Below, in pieces: positions 3,026 through 47,164 of a stretch of DNA of 64,000 nucleotides. This stretch comes from an uncultured Clostridia bacterium. Lineage in GTDB: Bacteria; Bacillota; Clostridia; TANB77; CAG-508. Made by a program: the position numbers and the translations under genes. Location of the stretch: assembly GCA_944387405.1 (NCBI GenBank), contig CALXET010000002.1:129316-193315 (forward strand). The letters run 5' to 3'. How positions within the stretch are numbered: position 1 is the first letter of the stretch; every line of letters starts with the position of its first letter. The notes under the pieces are model-generated. The model saw only the letters and a list, made by a program, of their open reading frames with translations. It was not told the origin of the DNA and made no database searches.

Positions 3026-4669
3026 TTACTTACTTGCTCTTTTTAAAACAGATTCCTTGCCAAGTACTTTTAATATTTCATATAAATCAGGAGTATTTGC
3101 CCTACCTGTTATTTTTACTCTAATTACTGTACTTATATCTCCAACATGACCTTTGTATGCATCTGGATTTGCTTTATATTCTTTAACTTCCCTCGCATAT
3201 CCTAGCTCTTCTGATAAATCCTTCATCTTATTAAACCATGTTTGTTTGTCATCATTTTCATCATAATATTTATCAAAATAAGTAGTTACTATCTTCTTAA
3301 TCTCATCTTCGTCAGTTACCTTTTGATACTCATATTCTATGTTTGAAGTTAAAAATCTATCATCAAACATATATATAATTGAATCTTTAACATCAGACCA
3401 TTTAGCAATATCTTTTCTAGGTTTTACATTTCCTCTTTCAATTCCAAAAATTTTTAAAGCATATTCTTTATCTCTATTTAATAATTCATATAAATCTTTA
3501 TCATATGTACTTGCCCAATTTAAAACATCTTCTAAAACTTTTTCAGCTGAATAAGTAGAAATTACTGTTTTTGATACATCTAATAATTTTACCATATCAA
3601 ATAAAGCTCCACTTACTCCCATTTTCTTAATATCAAAATTAAAATCATCTACTGATTTATCTTTATTTCCTTTTTTCCAAGCCTCAAAATTAGAATTTGC
3701 AATATTCATTAAATATTCAATAACTGCTTCTTTTGGAATTCCTTCTTCTCTATAATAACTAACTGCAGCCTCTGGATCTTTTCTTTTACTTAGTTTTCTC
3801 TTATTTCCATCTTCTTCTTTCATTATAGGAGCAATATGTGCATATTTAGGCGCTTTAAATCCTAACATATAAAATAATTGTAAGTGAAGTGGTACTGAAG
3901 CTACCCATTCATCTGCTCTTATTACTAAATTAGTTCTCATTAAATGATCATCTACTGCATGAGCAAAATGATATGTTGGAAGTCCATCTGATTTAATAAT
4001 TACTATATCTTGATCATTTTCTGGAAACTCTATATTACCTTTTATTAAATCTTTATGCTTAATTTTCTTATCTGGATTTCCTGGTGATTTTAATCTTACT
4101 ATATAACTATCACCATTTTTTATTTTTTCTATAGCCATATCTACAGGCATATTTCTACATCTTGTCCATTTTCCATAATATCCTGTTCTTTGTCTTGCTT
4201 TTGTTTGATTTTCTCTTATTTCATTTAAATCTTCTGCAGAACAAAAACATGGATATGCTAGTCCTTTTTCAAGTAAACTTTTAGCATATGCTTGATATAT
4301 TTCTTTTCTTTTACTTTGAATATATGGTCCATAATTTCCATTATCTGTTCCATCTTCATTTAAAGATTCATCTGGTGATAAATCATATTCTTTTAAAGAA
4401 GTTAATATTTCAGATACACCATTTTCTATTTCTCTTTTTTGATCTGTATCTTCTATTCTTACAAAAAATACACCATCAGTTTGTTTTGCCATTTTTTTAG
4501 CAACTAAACTTTGATATAAACCTCCTATATGTACAAATCCTGTTGGGCTTGGTGCAAATCTAGTAACTATAGCACCTTCTTTTAAATTTCTTTCTGGATA
4601 TTTCTCTTCATAATAAGATACATCCTTTGCATCTGGAAATATTAAATCTGCTAATTCTTTATATCCCAT
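3026..4669 (-). CDS. gltX: glutamyl-tRNA synthetase (class I, with insertion domain)
   Basis: HIGH-type motif FAPSPTGFVHIGG, VRIEDTDQKR, KLSKR (KMSKS-type). Start MGYKELADLIF at 4669 with RBS agagaggtag; the ORF-track start at 4744 lacks an RBS. Confidence 0.8.
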   Translation of the reverse strand: MGYKELADLIFPDAKDVSYYEEKYPERNLKEGAIVTRFAPSPTGFVHIGGLYQSLVAKKMAKQTDGVFFVRIEDTDQKREIENGVSEILTSLKEYDLSPDESLNEDGTDNGNYGPYIQSKRKEIYQAYAKSLLEKGLAYPCFCSAEDLNEIRENQTKARQRTGYYGKWTRCRNMPVDMAIEKIKNGDSYIVRLKSPGNPDKKIKHKDLIKGNIEFPENDQDIVIIKSDGLPTYHFAHAVDDHLMRTNLVIRADEWVASVPLHLQLFYMLGFKAPKYAHIAPIMKEEDGNKRKLSKRKDPEAAVSYYREEGIPKEAVIEYLMNIANSNFEAWKKGNKDKSVDDFNFDIKKMGVSGALFDMVKLLDVSKTVISTYSAEKVLEDVLNWASTYDKDLYELLNRDKEYALKIFGIERGNVKPRKDIAKWSDVKDSIIYMFDDRFLTSNIEYEYQKVTDEDEIKKIVTTYFDKYYDENDDKQTWFNKMKDLSEELGYAREVKEYKANPDAYKGHVGDISTVIRVKITGRANTPDLYEILKVLGKESVLKRASK

Positions 4670-8808: not shown

Positions 8809-9012
8809 AAAACCACCTCATTATTTCAAAATTTATATTTTAATTTAACTTTTCTTACAACTTAAATATCTTATTAATTTTAATTATTATATCATAAATA
8901 TTATTATTAAAAATTGTAATTAGTATTTTATATTTTAAAGTTTATTTAATTGTTTTATGTAAACTATTGTGCTATAATAAATTAAGGCAACATAGAAAGG
9001 AGGTCACCAGTT

Positions 9013-9480
9013 TTGGATAGACCTGTTTATATACGGAAACTAACCACTGCTGATGCTAAAATTTACAAAAACATTTCTTATGGAGAATCTCTCCATAGAT
9101 ATGTTTCTTTTATGGAAGCAAAAAGCATATCAGAAGCAGAAAGGATCATATCCTTCAACACCTGCCTGTTTTCTACTATGTATGGAATCTTTCGAGCTAG
9201 TGATAACAAGCTAGTTGGAGCTTTAATTACCTCATGGTATGAACCAGACAGTGAGATCACGGTTCACTACTTCATAGGAGAATATTACAGAAGGAAACAC
9301 TATGCTTACGAGTCCCTAATTGTTCTCTCTCGGCTCGTAAAGCAGAAGTACCCCGAAGTAAAGACTCTCTTATTCGAAGTCAGAAAAACTAACAAGGCAA
9401 GTATCGCTCTGCAGAAAGCCTTAGGATCTGAACTTGTGAAGGAAAATGATAAAATTTACTTCTACTATTTATCCGTATAA
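9013..9480 (+). CDS. GNAT-family N-acetyltransferase on higher-GC cassette D (TTG start)
   Basis: Strong SD aaggaggt; TGTGCTATAAT extended -10 at ~8965-8975 with TTGTTT -35 17 nt upstream; GNAT-like C-terminal motif KASIALQKALGSELV; higher GC than flanks. Confidence 0.55.
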   Translation: MDRPVYIRKLTTADAKIYKNISYGESLHRYVSFMEAKSISEAERIISFNTCLFSTMYGIFRASDNKLVGALITSWYEPDSEITVHYFIGEYYRRKHYAYESLIVLSRLVKQKYPEVKTLLFEVRKTNKASIALQKALGSELVKENDKIYFYYLSV

Positions 9481-9482
9481 GC

Positions 9483-9528
9483 CTAGCCCAAGGTTCCCCT
9501 AAAAAGGAGCCCGGGCTTTTCTTTTGTC
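9483..9528 (+). terminator. putative terminator of cassette D
   Basis: GC-rich palindromic segment agcccaagg...gagcccgggc followed by ttttcttttg. Confidence 0.4.
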
Positions 9529-9667
9529 TAATTATTAATATTTTTGTCTTACTATTTTTCTTGAATTTTATATTTTATCATTTTATACTTTTATCATAAC
9601 AATTTTGAATTTATAATTTTATTATTGCTTCTTTCTTGTTTAAAAATACAATAAAAGGAGTGATATT

Positions 9668-9982
9668 ATGAATTTTGATAATATTTTAGATAGTTTTAAT
9701 ATTGATGATTTTTCAAATGATTTACACAATTTCTTAAATAATATTACTGAAGAGGAACCTGTTTTATATACTTTAGATAGAGTTGAAGGAAATTTTGGTG
9801 TACTAGAAAATAGAGATACTGGAAAAATGTCAGATGTTCCTATTGAAAAATTACCAGAAGATCTAAAAGATGGTGATATTTTTAGATATTTTAATGGTGT
9901 TTTCGAAAAAGATATAGAAGCTTATAGTAAAACTAAAGAAAGAATAGATAGTTTAAGAGAAAATTTAAAAACAAATACTTAA
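9668..9982 (+). CDS. DUF3006-family small protein (native composition)
   Basis: YTLDRVEGNFGVLENRDTGKMSDVPIEKLPEDLKDGDIF pattern; RBS aaaaggag. Confidence 0.5.
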   Translation: MNFDNILDSFNIDDFSNDLHNFLNNITEEEPVLYTLDRVEGNFGVLENRDTGKMSDVPIEKLPEDLKDGDIFRYFNGVFEKDIEAYSKTKERIDSLRENLKTNT

Positions 9983-10060
9983 AATAGCAAAATTTGAATT
10001 TTTATGTTAACTGTGGTATTATTAATATATATACCCTATTTAGGAAGGAGGTATCAAGAA

Positions 10061-10828
10061 ATGGCAGGACACAAATTGTACCTTAAGTATGTACAACCTG
10101 TTGTTTCTGGCATTGATGGGGTATTCTCCCTTCTTGAGGGAATTGATGTCCTTAAGTGCTTTGTCCCTGATCTTCGGGAGCACTATAATGACTGCCCAAT
10201 AACATCTTTGCCAACCGTCACAGAAGAGGATCTTAAAAAACTGCTCAAGCCTAACAGCTTTGAGTATGTTCTAAAGACCTCAAAGGTGTTGGAAATCGAG
10301 TCGCCTAAGCTGGTGATTTCTGTATACACGATCTTCGAAATCGGAGGTTACGTTGCAGTAATCAAGTCTGGACGCAAGGTAAGCGCGAAAGTGCTGGGGT
10401 ACTACAACACCAGGGAGTTCAAGTCTGGTACCCACGCACTCTTCGATTTGCTGAAGAAACGTCACATGATTTCAGCTGAGTGCGAAGAGATCCAACCCGA
10501 TCGTCTGGACGTTCTCGATTTTGACGAGCTTGCAGATTGGCTATCTGGCTTCTTGGAGCCGGGTGTCACTCTCACGGTCAAGCACCGGCTCCCAACTTAC
10601 GAAGAGCTCGATGGAAAGCATACCACTTGGTATAACGATGGGAGTGCGCTTTCTCCTATCTACATCGAGATCGTAAACGTGAGTTGTGAGTGCTTCGTCA
10701 TATACGCCATGGTAAACTACGAAAACAAAGACGAGTACAGCTCCCTGGCTAAGAGCCATGGGTTCCAAGCTTACGAATCTGCGTTCTGTGATTCCGGCGT
10801 ATTTGAGGAACTGTTCTACACGGACTAG
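10061..10828 (+). CDS. hypothetical 255-aa protein on strongly higher-GC (~50%) cassette E
   Basis: SD aggaaggaggt before ATG 10061 (MAGHKLYLKY...). The ORF-track start at 10004 is upstream of the RBS. No recognisable motifs. Followed by a GC-rich terminator. Confidence 0.6.
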   Translation: MAGHKLYLKYVQPVVSGIDGVFSLLEGIDVLKCFVPDLREHYNDCPITSLPTVTEEDLKKLLKPNSFEYVLKTSKVLEIESPKLVISVYTIFEIGGYVAVIKSGRKVSAKVLGYYNTREFKSGTHALFDLLKKRHMISAECEEIQPDRLDVLDFDELADWLSGFLEPGVTLTVKHRLPTYEELDGKHTTWYNDGSALSPIYIEIVNVSCECFVIYAMVNYENKDEYSSLAKSHGFQAYESAFCDSGVFEELFYTD

Positions 10829-22559: not shown

Positions 22560-22765
22560 TTTAATATAAAAACATGCCCCACATTAGCCGTTAATGTAAA
22601 GAATTTTTAATGGACCTGTACTCACACAGGTGGGTGCCCTCCTGAATACTCCTGGGTTTCTTATATAAATATAAGCATACACGCCATACTCAGAGACCGA
22701 AGCTCCCTTCTCCAAACTTGTAGGTTCTAAAAACTCTGTCCTCACGCACCATGCAGGGATTGATA
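22560..22765 (-). ncRNA. candidate structured small RNA (about 200 nt; 6S-like size; identity unresolved)
   Basis: Only GC-richer non-coding stretch in a 515-nt ORF-free gap. Several stems form with G-U pairs only when read on the minus strand: long-range CCCUGCAUG...CAUGUGGGG closing helix about 185 nt apart, hairpin CCUGU-GUGAGU-ACAGG, C(UUCG)G tetraloop. A possible -10 (gataat) lies upstream and a terminator downstream. Confidence 0.4.
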
Positions 22766-43746: not shown

Positions 43747-44127
43747 CTACAAATACCTTCCTGTAATACTCTTTTTATTTTCCTTTATATCTTGCACAGT
43801 ACCTGTCCCGACTACCTTGCCTCCAAGGTATCCGCCTTCTGGTCCCATATCAATAATATAATCAGAATTTTTAATTACATCTAAATCATGTTCAATTACT
43901 ACTATTGTAGCTCCATTATCTATTAATTTTTGAAATATATTTAATAGCGTCTTTACATCTTTAGGGTGCAAACCTATACTTGGTTCATCAAATATAAATA
44001 CACTACCATCTTGAATTTTTCCTATTTCTGAGGCAAGTTTCAATCTTTGTGCCTCTCCTCCTGAAAGTGCTGGAGTTGCCTCTCCAAGTGTTAAATATCC
44101 TATTCCTAAATCTAATAAAACTTGTAA
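43747..44127 (-). pseudogene. uvrA: 3'-terminal fragment (about 127 codons) of a UvrA-family ABC ATPase gene
   Basis: LLDLGIGYLTLGEATPALSGGEAQRLKLASEIGK...IFDEPSIGLHPKDVKTLLN...IVVIEHDLDVIKNSDYIIDMGPEGGYLGGKVVGTGT matches the C-terminal NBD of UvrA. A stop lies immediately upstream in frame and the neighbouring membrane-protein gene abuts it. Confidence 0.65.
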
Positions 44128-44131
44128 TTTG

Positions 44132-44527
44132 TTAGTCTTTTATCTTTTTATCAATAACAAAATATGCAATTACCATGCACAAAGAAATTATTAATCCAAC
44201 ATAAAATGCTGGAAATACATTATTTAAACTATGTTGCAAATTTATTGAATTTTCATAATTAGGTATATACCAAGTTAAAAATTTATAAATTTCTGATAAT
44301 ACAATTCCTAGAACACCCAGAATATTCAAAATCTTATTTATTTTTTTATTTTTTAACGGAACCCATACTCCTATAAAAAATATAATAAAAGATATTAACC
44401 CTATTGGATTTAATAAATTAATTATACCAGATATTTCTTGAACACCTTTAGCTCCTCCATATTGATTAAATAACATAGGTATTAAACTAACTATAAATAA
44501 TACTGATAATACTATTTTCTTTTTCAT
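44132..44527 (-). CDS. membrane protein (131 aa)
   Basis: Four TM helices. Confidence 0.45.
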   Translation of the reverse strand: MKKKIVLSVLFIVSLIPMLFNQYGGAKGVQEISGIINLLNPIGLISFIIFFIGVWVPLKNKKINKILNILGVLGIVLSEIYKFLTWYIPNYENSINLQHSLNNVFPAFYVGLIISLCMVIAYFVIDKKIKD

Positions 44528-44794
44528 AAATTTATATTCCCTTTACAAATTACTATTTGTCCTTTAGATATTATCATAAAAGAAAACGATTATCAATTAT
44601 TCTCTTTTACTTATTATAAACTATCTTTCTAATGATTCATCCCGAAACTTATTTGCCATTAAAAGTTTTTTTATAAATTCTTTCTCTAGTTCGAAAATCT
44701 ATTAATTCTGTATAGATTCTTTATATAATGAATATTATCTATAACAATTGAAAATAGAAGGTGTTATAAAATATTTTGCAAATTAATAAGAACT

Positions 44795-44858
44795 TTTTGA
44801 AAAACAACAAAAAAAGATGAAAAAGGTTATCTTTTTCATCTAAAGTGGTGACCCCTAC
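44795..44858. repeat. 64-bp direct repeat, copy A (tRNA-Glu 3'-end 13 nt plus its terminator hairpin plus flank)
   Basis: 63/64 identical to 46564-46627. Confidence 0.85.
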
Positions 44859-46563
44859 CCTGATTGAGAGGCTATTTTTATTGATTTATCAACATTTTAT
44901 TCAAAAAGTGTTCAATTTTGTGTTGCAATAAAATCAAAAAATACTGTTTTTTAAAAAAACTTCAATTACTCAGACTTTAATTTTATAAATCAATCATGTA
45001 CTTACATTTTATAATATTTTTAATCTCTTTTCTAAAATGAAATTTAGTCTGAATTTTATTAATTTAATTATCTAATCAATATAATGTTTTTTATGTCATT
45101 AATATATTTAATTAATTTGCTAACCAATTAGCTATATCGTATATTTGTATTCCTTCATATTGGTAATCTTCGTGTTTTGTTCTTGCTATTATTATCTTTG
45201 GATATGCATCTTTTATTTGTAATAATGGCTCGACTTCTCTTTTCAAAGTCTTTTCGTACTCTATATTATCTGAAACTTGAATATAAATTTTTTCGTTTCT
45301 TTTTAGTGCTATAAAATCCACTTCTTTATTATATAACATCCCTGTATATACTTCATAACCCCTTCTTAATAATTCGATTGCGACAATATTTTCATATATC
45401 CTACCATAATCTAAAGATTTTGTGCCTAAGCGAGCATATCTAAATGCATGATCACATAAATAATATTTTTCATCACTATTTAAATATTTTTTACCTTTTA
45501 TGTCATATCTACTAATTTTATAAAAGGCAAACGCCTCACATAAATATTCAATATAATTACCAACTGTTTTATGGTTTGTTTCCAAATTAATATTATTTAA
45601 TGAATTTGCAACATTTCTTAAAGATGTTCTATTAGATATATTATCCATTAGAAAATCATTTAATGAACTCATTAGTTTTTCATCTTTTATCTTGTTTCTT
45701 TCAAAAATATCTCTAACTATTAGAGTATTATATATATCATTTAAATAATCATATTTTTTATCTATTGAATTATATAAATATGAACCTGACATTCCACCTT
45801 CCATTACATACTTATCGAATGCTTTATCGATATCCTCATATTGAAAATATTCAAGATATTCTTTAAACGAAAATGGATAAACTTCAATTTCAAATGTTCT
45901 TCCAGTAAATAATGTAGCTAAATCACTACTTAATAAAAAAGCATTAGAGCCAGTTATATATATGTCATATTTTTCTTCTGAGTGTAGACTATTTATAGTC
46001 TTTTCAAAACCTTCACACATTTGCACTTCATCAATTAATACAAAATTGTTCATTCCTTTTTTATATCTTTGTGTTATATAATCATTCAATTTATGATATT
46101 CTTTTAAGTGCTCAAAATCTAATGAGTTATAATTTATATCAATTATATTGTAATTTTTTACATTATTTTTTATATATTCTTTAAAAAGTTCTAATAATTT
46201 AGATTTTCCACTTCTTCTAACTCCTGTGATGACTTTTATATCAGGAGTTCCCATTACTTCTATTAAAGTATTAAGATAATTTCTTTCTATTAATTTCATA
46301 TTTTCACCTCAAAAAAATTATACCATATTACTTCCCAAAAATCAAATATTTTTAAAAATGGGAAGTGGCAATTTTTATTATGTAACATTTCTAAATTAGT
46401 ATACATTTATAATAAATATTTTTTCTCAATATTTAATATAAACAAACTTAATCTTAACTATTTTTTAAAGTTCACTAATTTCAAGCAGTGTACAAAATAG
46501 TATATACATTTTGGCAAAAAACAAGTAAAGTCTTAAACTTCACTTATTTAGGCAAATACAGCG
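44859..46563 (-). mobile_element. putative tRNA-Glu-associated mini-island or remnant bounded by the 64-bp direct repeats
   Basis: att-like duplication of the tRNA 3' end; single cargo gene (AAA+ ATPase); no integrase in the bounded segment. Confidence 0.4.
45112..46299 (-). CDS. AAA+ ATPase of the AAA_14/DUF4143 (COG1373) family
   Basis: Walker A GVRRSGKSKLLE, Walker B FVLIDEVQ, C-terminal DUF4143-like region. Confidence 0.7.
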   Translation of the reverse strand: MKLIERNYLNTLIEVMGTPDIKVITGVRRSGKSKLLELFKEYIKNNVKNYNIIDINYNSLDFEHLKEYHKLNDYITQRYKKGMNNFVLIDEVQMCEGFEKTINSLHSEEKYDIYITGSNAFLLSSDLATLFTGRTFEIEVYPFSFKEYLEYFQYEDIDKAFDKYVMEGGMSGSYLYNSIDKKYDYLNDIYNTLIVRDIFERNKIKDEKLMSSLNDFLMDNISNRTSLRNVANSLNNINLETNHKTVGNYIEYLCEAFAFYKISRYDIKGKKYLNSDEKYYLCDHAFRYARLGTKSLDYGRIYENIVAIELLRRGYEVYTGMLYNKEVDFIALKRNEKIYIQVSDNIEYEKTLKREVEPLLQIKDAYPKIIIARTKHEDYQYEGIQIYDIANWLAN

Positions 46564-46627
46564 TTTTGAAAAACAATAAAAAAAGATGAAAAAGGTTATC
46601 TTTTTCATCTAAAGTGGTGACCCCTAC
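46564..46627. repeat. 64-bp direct repeat, copy B (overlaps the tRNA-Glu 3' end)
   Basis: See copy A. Confidence 0.85.
46574..46609 (-). terminator. intrinsic terminator after tRNA-Glu
   Basis: Stem gatgaaaaag/ctttttcatc with loop gttatc (minus-sense GAUGAAAAAG-AUAACC-UUUUUCAUC) followed by UUUUUUUAUUG. Confidence 0.65.
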
Positions 46628-46689
46628 GGGAATCGAACCCATGATTCCACCTTGAGAGGGTGGCGTCTTAACCGCTTGACCAAGGGGCC
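46615..46689 (-). tRNA. tRNA-Glu (anticodon CUC)
   Basis: Minus-sense GGCCCCUUGGUCAAGCGGUUAAGACGCCACCCUCUCAAGGUGGAAUCAUGGGUUCGAUUCCCGUAGGGGUCACCA: 7-bp acceptor stem, D loop, anticodon loop CUCUCAA, T-loop GGUUCGAUUCC, encoded CCA; near-identical to Bacillus tRNA-Glu. Confidence 0.85.
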
Positions 46690-46744
46690 ATAAATGGTAC
46701 TATCTATTTATACCATAAAACATCGTTTTCAGTCAAGCAATTTA

Positions 46745-47164
46745 TTAAATATTATCTATATTATCAACTTTTTGTATACACAAGTCTAAAATTTCTTTTA
46801 ATCTTTCATCCCTTTTAGTTAAATATAAATACCCTATTAAAGCTTCAAAAGCCGTTGCATACATATAATCTGCAGGATCCGCATTTTTAGGTAAATGATG
46901 ATTCTCAGCATTTCTACCTCTTCTTACAATATCTTTTTCTTCTTCTGTCAATACATCTTCTATACTTTTTAAAATATCTGCTTGTGATTTTGCTTTAACA
47001 AACTTAATTGCTTCTATATGCAATCTATGAGGTTTTAATTTTGTCTTATTTATTAAATATGTTCTAACATATAATTCATAAACACTATCACCAACATATG
47101 CCCATGTTAGTGGTGATAACATTTTTATATCCATCTCTTCTTTTTCTCTATCTATTAATTCCAA
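46745..47164 (-). CDS. mrnC: mini-ribonuclease III (Mini-III, MrnC)
   Basis: LSPLTWAYVGDSVYELYVR (RNase III signature) in a ~140-aa protein. Confidence 0.8.
   Translation of the reverse strand: MELIDREKEEMDIKMLSPLTWAYVGDSVYELYVRTYLINKTKLKPHRLHIEAIKFVKAKSQADILKSIEDVLTEEEKDIVRRGRNAENHHLPKNADPADYMYATAFEALIGYLYLTKRDERLKEILDLCIQKVDNIDNI

Follow-up and report, generated by a model that had tools for sequence, protein, structure and literature searches.

A 64-kb stretch of contig CALXET010000002.1 (assembly GCA_944387405.1, an uncultured Clostridia bacterium), called the window below, was analyzed with respect to a 1.77-kb unit which carries a single AAA+ ATPase gene and adjoins tRNA-Glu(CUC). Comparison loci and contigs are labeled with L numbers and proteins with P numbers of this analysis. 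The unit was bracketed by a 64-nt direct repeat, copy A (44795-44858, minus strand) and copy B (46564-46627, minus strand), with 63 of 64 positions identical and a spacing of 1769 nt. A 50-nt core of this repeat occurred exactly twice in the window and not once in 100 shuffles. The tRNA-Glu(CUC) gene at 46615-46689 (minus strand), the only one placed at the locus, was complete according to ARAGORN and Rfam (tRNA, 63.3 bits), and would be the integration target with attB in its 3′ end. Copy B covered the last 13 nt of the gene (46615-46627, minus strand), and this proximal core, GTAGGGGTCACCA, comprises 2 nt at the end of the T stem, the acceptor strand on the 3′ side, the discriminator base and CCA. 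Exactly two matches to the 13-nt core were detected in the window at up to 2 mismatches, compared with 0.09 in shuffled sequences. After the core, copy B continued with hairpin 1, a T-run and TTGTTTTTCAAAA, ending about 20 nt beyond the hairpin and T-run, and formed the start of the left end of the element. Copy A was composed of the distal core (44846-44858), hairpin 1 (44815-44841) and TTGTTTTTCAAAA, and represents an att junction together with the start of the left end of a second element. Hairpin 1 (46584-46610 in copy B) has an 11-bp stem followed by a T-run and resembles an intrinsic terminator; these two hairpins were the only terminator-like sites in 44600-46800, where the shuffle mean was 0.2. 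The distal junction carried the identical 13-nt tRNA 3′ end and the tRNA itself was intact, as is characteristic of tRNA-integrating elements that bring a replacement 3′ end. No terminal inverted repeats around the 1.77-kb unit and no transposase by Pfam were found, thus the unit did not qualify as a transposon or insertion sequence.

Between the two copies, the only open reading frame (ORF) longer than 45 aa was located at 45112-46299 (minus strand). Its 395-aa product contained AAA_14 (7.6e-31) and DUF4143 (1.5e-18) domains by Pfam, and the Walker A (GVRRSGKSK) and Walker B (VLIDEVQ) motifs were present in the translation. In PADLOC, the full-length protein (residues 1-394) matched model PDLC04787 of PDC-S01, a candidate defence family, at 9.3e-147, and by this family match it is a candidate anti-phage defence protein. 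An earlier note, made from the sequence alone, had described the 63/64 identical copies, the tRNA end, terminator and about 20 nt of flank within copy B, and the lone AAA_14/DUF4143 gene between the copies, all of which were confirmed; its suggestion of a possibly defence-related cargo was supported by the match to the candidate family PDC-S01. No solved structure matching the ATPase by sequence was found in a PDB sequence search. DUF4143 has been listed within the PD-(D/E)XK nuclease superfamily (PMC3424549). Of the sigma-70-like promoter matches for the gene, the best one (TTGATT-17-TATAAT, extended TG) was located at 46317-46345 (minus strand), and was bracketed by an 8-nt inverted repeat, ACTTCCCA/TGGGAAGT (46330-46337 and 46359-46366).

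Relatives of the ATPase with 84-93% identity occupied unrelated sites, in a region of type IV secretion system genes (L027-L032), between ABC/FtsX and NUDIX genes (L033-L038) and beside a large serine recombinase (L068, L070). The DNA homology of these relatives to the window covered the gene and about 70 nt upstream, and ended at the stop codon; neither a tRNA nor bracketing direct repeats were found at these unrelated loci. The ATPase is a promiscuous cargo gene. Since no non-coding DNA other than the upstream stretch of about 70 nt (46317-46372) travels with it throughout the other contexts, this stretch with its inverted repeats may be an operator. In L064-L071, the ATPase relatives (P0008, 93% identity) were preceded by about 1.4 kb free of called genes, with the serine recombinase downstream in L068 and L070; the translation of the gene at these loci was not an exact match to the query.

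The sequences at the borders of the unit connected it to a family of integrated elements. Abutting the distal core, a conserved right end was identified at 44859-44930 (minus strand), consisting of arm-like repeats TTGCAACAC and TTGAACAC, then AAAATGTTGATAAATCAA, then a segment ending in CTCAATCAGG. It aligned with the right ends of the integrase-bearing L041, L054 and L057 and of eight other islands, and an 18-mer of it had one exact match in the window. All distal-type junctions were preceded by such a block of about 70 nt, which runs from TTTTGCAACAC-AAATTTGCAACAC through AAAATGTTGATAAATCAA and a further stretch of about 20 nt to CAATCAGG, directly followed by GTAGGGGTCACCA. In the proximal-type junctions, the core was followed by a conserved block of about 170 nt, made up of hairpin 1, T-run, TTGTTTTTCAAAA, hairpin 2 and three repeats of 8-9 nt. 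The left-end alignment took in 25 junctions, and the repeats of the triplet were spaced by 12 nt, for example AAATTGCACCCG, TTTTTGCACACC and AAATTGCACACC.

A scan for the core and hairpin with one genome per species yielded 15 loci in Candidatus Scatovivens and related uncultured Clostridia metagenome-assembled genomes (MAGs). In L041, an intact tyrosine integrase and a Mob_Pre relaxase were found upstream of such a right end. Contigs encoding this integrase, P0121 (399 aa), were then retrieved, and they revealed a complete element of about 11.5 kb in a sister species (L054-L058), in the same context as in the window: YlqF GTPase, mini-RNase III, tRNA-Glu, the element, then Ham1 and SMC. The element carried the integrase (Phage_integrase, 3.6e-27) and Mob_Pre (1.2e-38), and the core was present again at its far end. 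Behind the left end came a Spo0A_C-like gene, an HTH_3 regulator, DUF3846 and small genes, followed by the integrase with an 88-aa gene and Mob_Pre, and then by the cargo, the right end and the core. A second subfamily with integrase P0129, 83% identical to P0121, showed the same gene order, with the addition of an HTH_17-like 94-aa gene just before the integrase and DUF6809 after the relaxase. The small HTH_17-like protein is a probable excisionase.

These intact elements also defined the extent of the att duplication. The identity between attL and attR was 18 nt in L054 (GTAGGGGTCACCAATTTT) and 13 nt in L072 and L073, and attR was followed by a different, host-type terminator hairpin. Because the shared identity was this short and the host terminator differed, the crossover would lie in the 13 nt that end the tRNA or a few nt beyond, and hairpin 1 is part of the left end of the element. 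The 13-nt core, the only segment duplicated by all intact members, is thus the probable crossover region. The earlier note had interpreted the 64-nt copies as attL and attR of integration into the tRNA 3′ end; the integration part was supported by the integrase-bearing relative at the same tRNA and by the homologous ends, but 64 nt is not the size of the att duplication, which is 13-18 nt in intact elements. The arm-like repeats matched at both ends of each element and differed by integrase, being TTGCAAACA/TTGCAACAC with P0121 and TTGTGCAG with P0129, which suggested that the triplets could be arm-type binding sites of the integrase or excisionase. Such triplets of 8-9-nt repeats with 12-nt spacing were seen at left ends in L001 (4468-4640 and 5768-5782), L011 (about 4075-4115) and L073 (about 3790-3830); the types TTGCACAC, TTGCAAAC and TTGTGCAG followed the integrase subfamily, and each recurred at the matching right end. 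In L041 (573-705) and L055 (17270-17414), the second core of the array was preceded by a hairpin and a longer tRNA-like piece, GGGTAGATTCCC (the corresponding tRNA sequence is GGGTTCGATTCCC), which may be a fragment of a different tRNA-Glu brought by an element.

Compared with the intact elements, the unit in the window was strongly reduced. The two cores, both hairpins and the right end were kept, and copy B together with hairpin 2 (GTGAAGTTTAAGACTTTAC, 46519-46549, minus strand; fold of -29.3 kcal/mol, z = -3.7) aligned with the left ends of integrase-bearing elements. The arm-like triplet of three TTGCACAC repeats, which normally follows hairpin 2 and was present in every intact element, was absent; hairpin 2 ran directly into the ATPase upstream region at the junction between ACTTGTTTTT and TGCCAAAATG. 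In L010 and L063, the triplet was partly kept and hairpin 2 was gone. The breakpoints between strains fell at the short internal repeats TTGTTTTTCAAAA, TTTTTTG and GCACACCAAA, as is typical of deletion. Neither an integrase nor a relaxase was detected in the 64-kb window by tblastn with the family integrase and Mob_Pre (E ≤ 1); the earlier note had described the putative island as one with no integrase.

The DNA beyond copy A corresponded to a left end from which hairpin 2 was deleted, with TTTTTTGTTGTTTTTCAAAAA, TATTAATTTGCAAAATATTTT and TTCAATTGTTATAGA as collinear short matches, and was assigned to the remnant of an older second element at 44545-44794 (minus strand). In this remnant, a left-end piece, TATTAATTTGCAAAATATTTT, is followed by the 3′ portion of DUF6809, a backbone gene, along with the terminator of this gene and the ribosome-binding-site region downstream of it. 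For the TATTAATTTGCAAAATATTTT piece, the collinear counterpart was the left end of element 2 in L057, and the DUF6809 3′ region (44545-44736) was 78-83% identical to L047, L043, L055-58 and L063. In view of this collinearity with left end and backbone, copy A would start a second, older and heavily decayed element, and the two 64-nt copies would be the left ends of two tandem elements. A 131-aa ORF without a family match (44132-44527, minus strand) was located in cargo position downstream of the DUF6809 remnant and probably belongs to this second element. For a 98-aa ORF at 43747-44043 (minus strand), the sole match was to positions 258-295 of the 304-position AAA_21 profile, at its C-terminal end, and did not reach the Pfam cut-off; the ORF resembles a remnant of a larger ATPase gene, yet it was 100% conserved in many strains.

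The variation at this site within the species was then evaluated. About 40 contigs of the same species, with 95-99% identity, were obtained by looking up the exact ATPase, mini-RNase III and 98-aa protein in public assemblies. The distal copy had a constant left flank and was always preceded by CTCAATCA[A/G]G, and three types of content were found between the tRNA and the distal copy. The first contained the ATPase alone (the window, L010/L023). The second was a 6.4-kb island in which the ATPase was joined by a 323-aa gene and a three-gene ABC transporter (L001, L017, L018). In the third (L011), the ATPase was absent and HEPN_Apea was found with an EcoRI-type methylase and a type II restriction enzyme. 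The mini-RNase III protein of L011 was identical to that of the window, and at the same tRNA L011 possessed a 159-codon tyrosine integrase fragment (Phage_integrase, 7e-9) with an in-frame stop and without the C-terminal catalytic part; this pseudogene was 91% identical to residues 164-313 of P0121. The earlier note had offered a decayed island or a cassette mobilized in trans, and this choice was supported by the pseudogenized integrase in the same species and the intact integrative mobilizable element (IME) in the sister species. In L009 and L063, the ATPase 3′ flank was fused directly to the DUF6809-3′ module, without right end or core. The earlier note had held that an ATPase gene at this position without repeats would speak against integration; L009 and L063 do show such an arrangement, but they are further deletion derivatives, which explains the missing repeat and leaves the model standing.

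Some of the variants deserve separate description. In L001, the module of the 323-aa gene was nested between GCACACCAAA copies. The tRNA-adjacent 323-aa (L001 4635-5606, minus strand) and 314-aa (L008 6848-7792, minus strand) genes were considered as recombinases and dropped, as neither had a Pfam or PADLOC match; a gene for this 323/314-aa protein adjoined the tRNA in many strains. L009 contained a second, inverted mini-RNase III/YlqF pair (8858-10148), about 70% identical to the first; the inverted duplication is genuine, or else the assembly has fused two species.

Tandem arrays at the same tRNA were observed in several genomes. The complete 1.8-Mb MAG chromosome L047 had two integrase-less islands, each beginning with DUF6809; L063 had a HEPN_AbiU2/Mrr element followed by the ATPase unit; L072 had an Abhydrolase element followed by an intact IME; and L051, from a further species-level MAG, had an array with the ATPase unit in second place. 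The ATPase unit was first in L039 and the window, and second in L051 and L063. The cargo of the sister islands was largely defence-like, with HEPN_Apea, an EcoRI methylase and REase_II in L011 (4323-8221), Schlafen AlbA_2/HATPase_c_4 in L047 (3479-4939; PADLOC pAgo-associated model, 5e-47), HEPN_AbiU2 and Mrr_cat in L063 (2458-4688), and type I restriction-modification genes in L059 (1-6445). Two of the comparison loci, L039 and L063, represent a second species, whose DNA was only 70-75% identical to the window in Ham1, SMC and other genes. In the same species, the tRNA-proximal left end and ATPase unit were 96.8% identical over 722 nt and 95.7% over 1583 nt; the unit adjoined the tRNA in L039 and was pushed outward by another element in L063. 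Because 95.7-96.8% identity of the unit was found beside 70-75% identity of the housekeeping genes, these comparisons point to recent interspecies transfer, and to new integrations at the tRNA-proximal site. Site-specific mobilization in trans, a composite with a functional element, and homologous exchange through the end blocks would all be compatible routes. In L039, L044 and L063, which represent at least two other species, tRNA-Glu and the island were inverted relative to the Ham1-SMC genes, and the tRNA was divergent from an acetyltransferase or deaminase gene and Ham1 and did not follow mini-RNase III.

On these grounds, the 1.77-kb unit is very probably an integrase-less derivative, similar to a cis-mobilizable element (CIME), of an IME family with tyrosine integrase and Mob_Pre that targets tRNA-Glu, standing in tandem with an older remnant. 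The hosts would be Candidatus Scatovivens-like gut Clostridia, and the family would recognize the last 13 nt of tRNA-Glu(CUC). An intact member contains, in order, the core, the hairpin-1 terminator, hairpin 2, the triplet of 8-9-nt repeats, the regulator and DUF3846, the HTH_17-like gene, the integrase, Mob_Pre, DUF6809, cargo and the right end of about 70 nt. Integration would proceed by a tyrosine-recombinase crossover inside GTAGGGGTCACCA, and the tRNA would stay intact as the element brings a replacement 3′ end and its own terminator. At the locus in the window, the older element presumably decayed until its left end, the DUF6809 remnant and the downstream cargo were left, and a later element then appears to have inserted between this remnant and the tRNA by tandem accretion. 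The later element would have shed its regulation, integrase and relaxase modules together with the left-arm triplet, and retained the acquired ATPase with its own promoter. The unit cannot move on its own but has spread between species, most probably together with a functional relative in a composite, or through recombination at the conserved ends.

Several points weigh against this explanation. Since the triplet is absent from the window, the unit may fall short of a strict CIME, which keeps functional attL and attR. No unoccupied site was found among the about 40 same-species contigs. Scans of the JGI metagenome contigs gave 0 matches for an empty site both in the window species (tRNA 3′ end and distal flank) and in the sister species (tRNA and native terminator); the latter organism seems to be poorly represented there, which makes its result uninformative and not a true negative. 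Because no empty site was found, the insertion was deduced by comparison and not seen directly. L050 and L046, from other species, had the tRNA and hairpin 1 with no island; they are possibly scars, not unoccupied sites. No excision product was found either, and an excision junction is indistinguishable from a tandem junction in assemblies. All comparison sequences were metagenome contigs or MAGs, and individual contigs among them may have been joined chimerically at the tRNA and hairpin repeat that they have in common.

The unit was compared with known systems. CIMEs and their accretion scenario have been defined (PMC5704250), and the window unit is likewise flanked by att-type direct repeats including the tRNA 3′ end, with both 13-nt cores and homologous arms, is likewise without integrase or transfer genes, with the ATPase as its only gene, likewise derives from an IME family at the same site (intact in the sister species, a pseudogene in its own), and likewise stands in a tandem array with other decayed elements. 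It differs in its Scatovivens-like Clostridia host, the tRNA-Glu CUC target and another integrase family member, and also in the deleted left-arm triplet, so attL is possibly non-functional. Among tyrosine-integrase IMEs with MobV/Mob_Pre relaxases in tRNA 3′ ends, NBU1 (tRNA-Leu) and IME_Sag2603_tRNAlys are known (Table 1, PMC5704250). The parent family (L054-L058, L072-L075) shares with them the tyrosine integrase, a single relaxase, a small putative excisionase, cargo and the restoration of the tRNA 3′ end, and carries its own terminator hairpins, which make the repeats long when two elements are in tandem. The window unit has none of those genes and is not an IME, with neither an integrase of its own nor a relaxase (no Mob_Pre homologue). 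With PDC-S01, a single-gene candidate family of COG1373 AAA+ ATPases with DUF4143, the ATPase agrees over its full length, and it also rides mobile elements beside other defence genes. A likeness to integron cassette arrays exists in the small, mostly promoter-poor or single-gene units, the repeated recombination site and the fixed chromosomal anchor. However, no IntI-type integrase adjoins the array, attC-type folded single-strand sites are missing, and the units have asymmetric lambda-like left and right arms. The window unit is thus neither an integron cassette nor a transposon, and it was not produced by the ATPase gene.

Other explanations were considered. The island content might have been swapped by homologous recombination through conserved flanks, with the repeats as the legacy of an old integration. 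The left (about 170 nt) and right (about 140 nt) end blocks were more than 90% conserved across species and cargo types, and the indel boundaries at TTGTTTTTCAAAA, GCACACCAAA and TTTTTTG are consistent with such exchange. This process, which we rate as possible though rather unlikely to be the whole account, leaves the origin of the ends and arrays unexplained, and it complements the decayed-IME explanation and does not replace it.

The unit could also be a still-active integrase-less cassette, moved in trans by a resident or incoming integrase of the family, with tRNA-Glu holding an exchangeable cassette array of mostly defence genes. Both 13-nt cores and the right end are intact, island 1 of L047 is an integrase-less unit with both ends complete, the unit is first or second in the array depending on the genome, and a species whose housekeeping genes are 70-75% identical carries the ATPase unit at 96-97% identity. 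However, the window copy lacks the left-arm triplet of every intact element, no integrase was present in the 64-kb window, and the only integrase seen in the same species was a pseudogene. Within the species, the identity of the unit between strains (98%) was close to that of the flanks (96-98%), which fits vertical descent with indels, and the shifts in position are equally explained by new elements integrating beside the tRNA. Present activity is therefore doubtful. With a similar degree of doubt, tRNA-Glu(CUC) might be viewed in this clade as the anchor of an integron-like exchangeable array, in which cassettes that keep the IME arms would be shuffled in trans within and between species; the cargo of the proposed array comprises the PDC-S01 ATPase and the HEPN/restriction-modification, HEPN_AbiU2/Mrr and Schlafen-AlbA2 genes.

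It is very improbable that the ATPase gene itself, as an AAA+ protein with a PD-(D/E)XK-like DUF4143 domain homing to the tRNA 3′ end, was the mobile agent and created the 64-nt duplication. The superfamily assignment of DUF4143 (PMC3424549) and the 84-93% identical relatives in unrelated contexts, homologous over the gene and about 70 nt upstream, would fit this idea. However, those relatives lack a tRNA and bracketing direct repeats, the same repeat and ends bracket ATPase-free islands (L011, L047, element 1 of L063, L054), and in L001 the repeats enclose 6.4 kb with four further genes; self-mobility of the gene was accordingly rejected. Least probable of all, to the point of being negligible, is that the distal copy was left behind by a tandem duplication of the tRNA-Glu gene, or is some common intergenic repeat, and is unrelated to mobile elements: the hairpin-1 terminator does follow tRNA-Glu in island-free genomes (L050, L046), but similarity to the tRNA ends precisely at the 13-nt core, which has upstream of it 70 nt of conserved right end and not of tRNA sequence, and the repeat, with its two core matches, occurs only twice in the window, so the common repeat envisaged by the earlier note as a refutation was itself refuted.

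Elsewhere in the window, a 6S/SsrS RNA was recognized at 22572-22762 (minus strand; Rfam, 77 bits, full-length model).

The striking repeat pair beside tRNA-Glu is explained by ordinary mobile-element biology. It belongs to a well-known kind of genomic-island decay and leaves current concepts unchanged. An IME family that had not been described before was revealed, together with the products of its decay, in a lineage of uncultured gut Clostridia with small genomes. Restriction-modification, HEPN, Mrr, Schlafen-like or PDC-S01 genes are frequent cargo of the elements found here, which makes the locus a natural case of a defence island that arose as elements integrated and decayed repeatedly. 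With the conserved ends as a simple sequence handle, further cargo of this kind can be sought in metagenomes, and the unit is useful as a marker of a defence-gene hotspot in this uncultured gut lineage.

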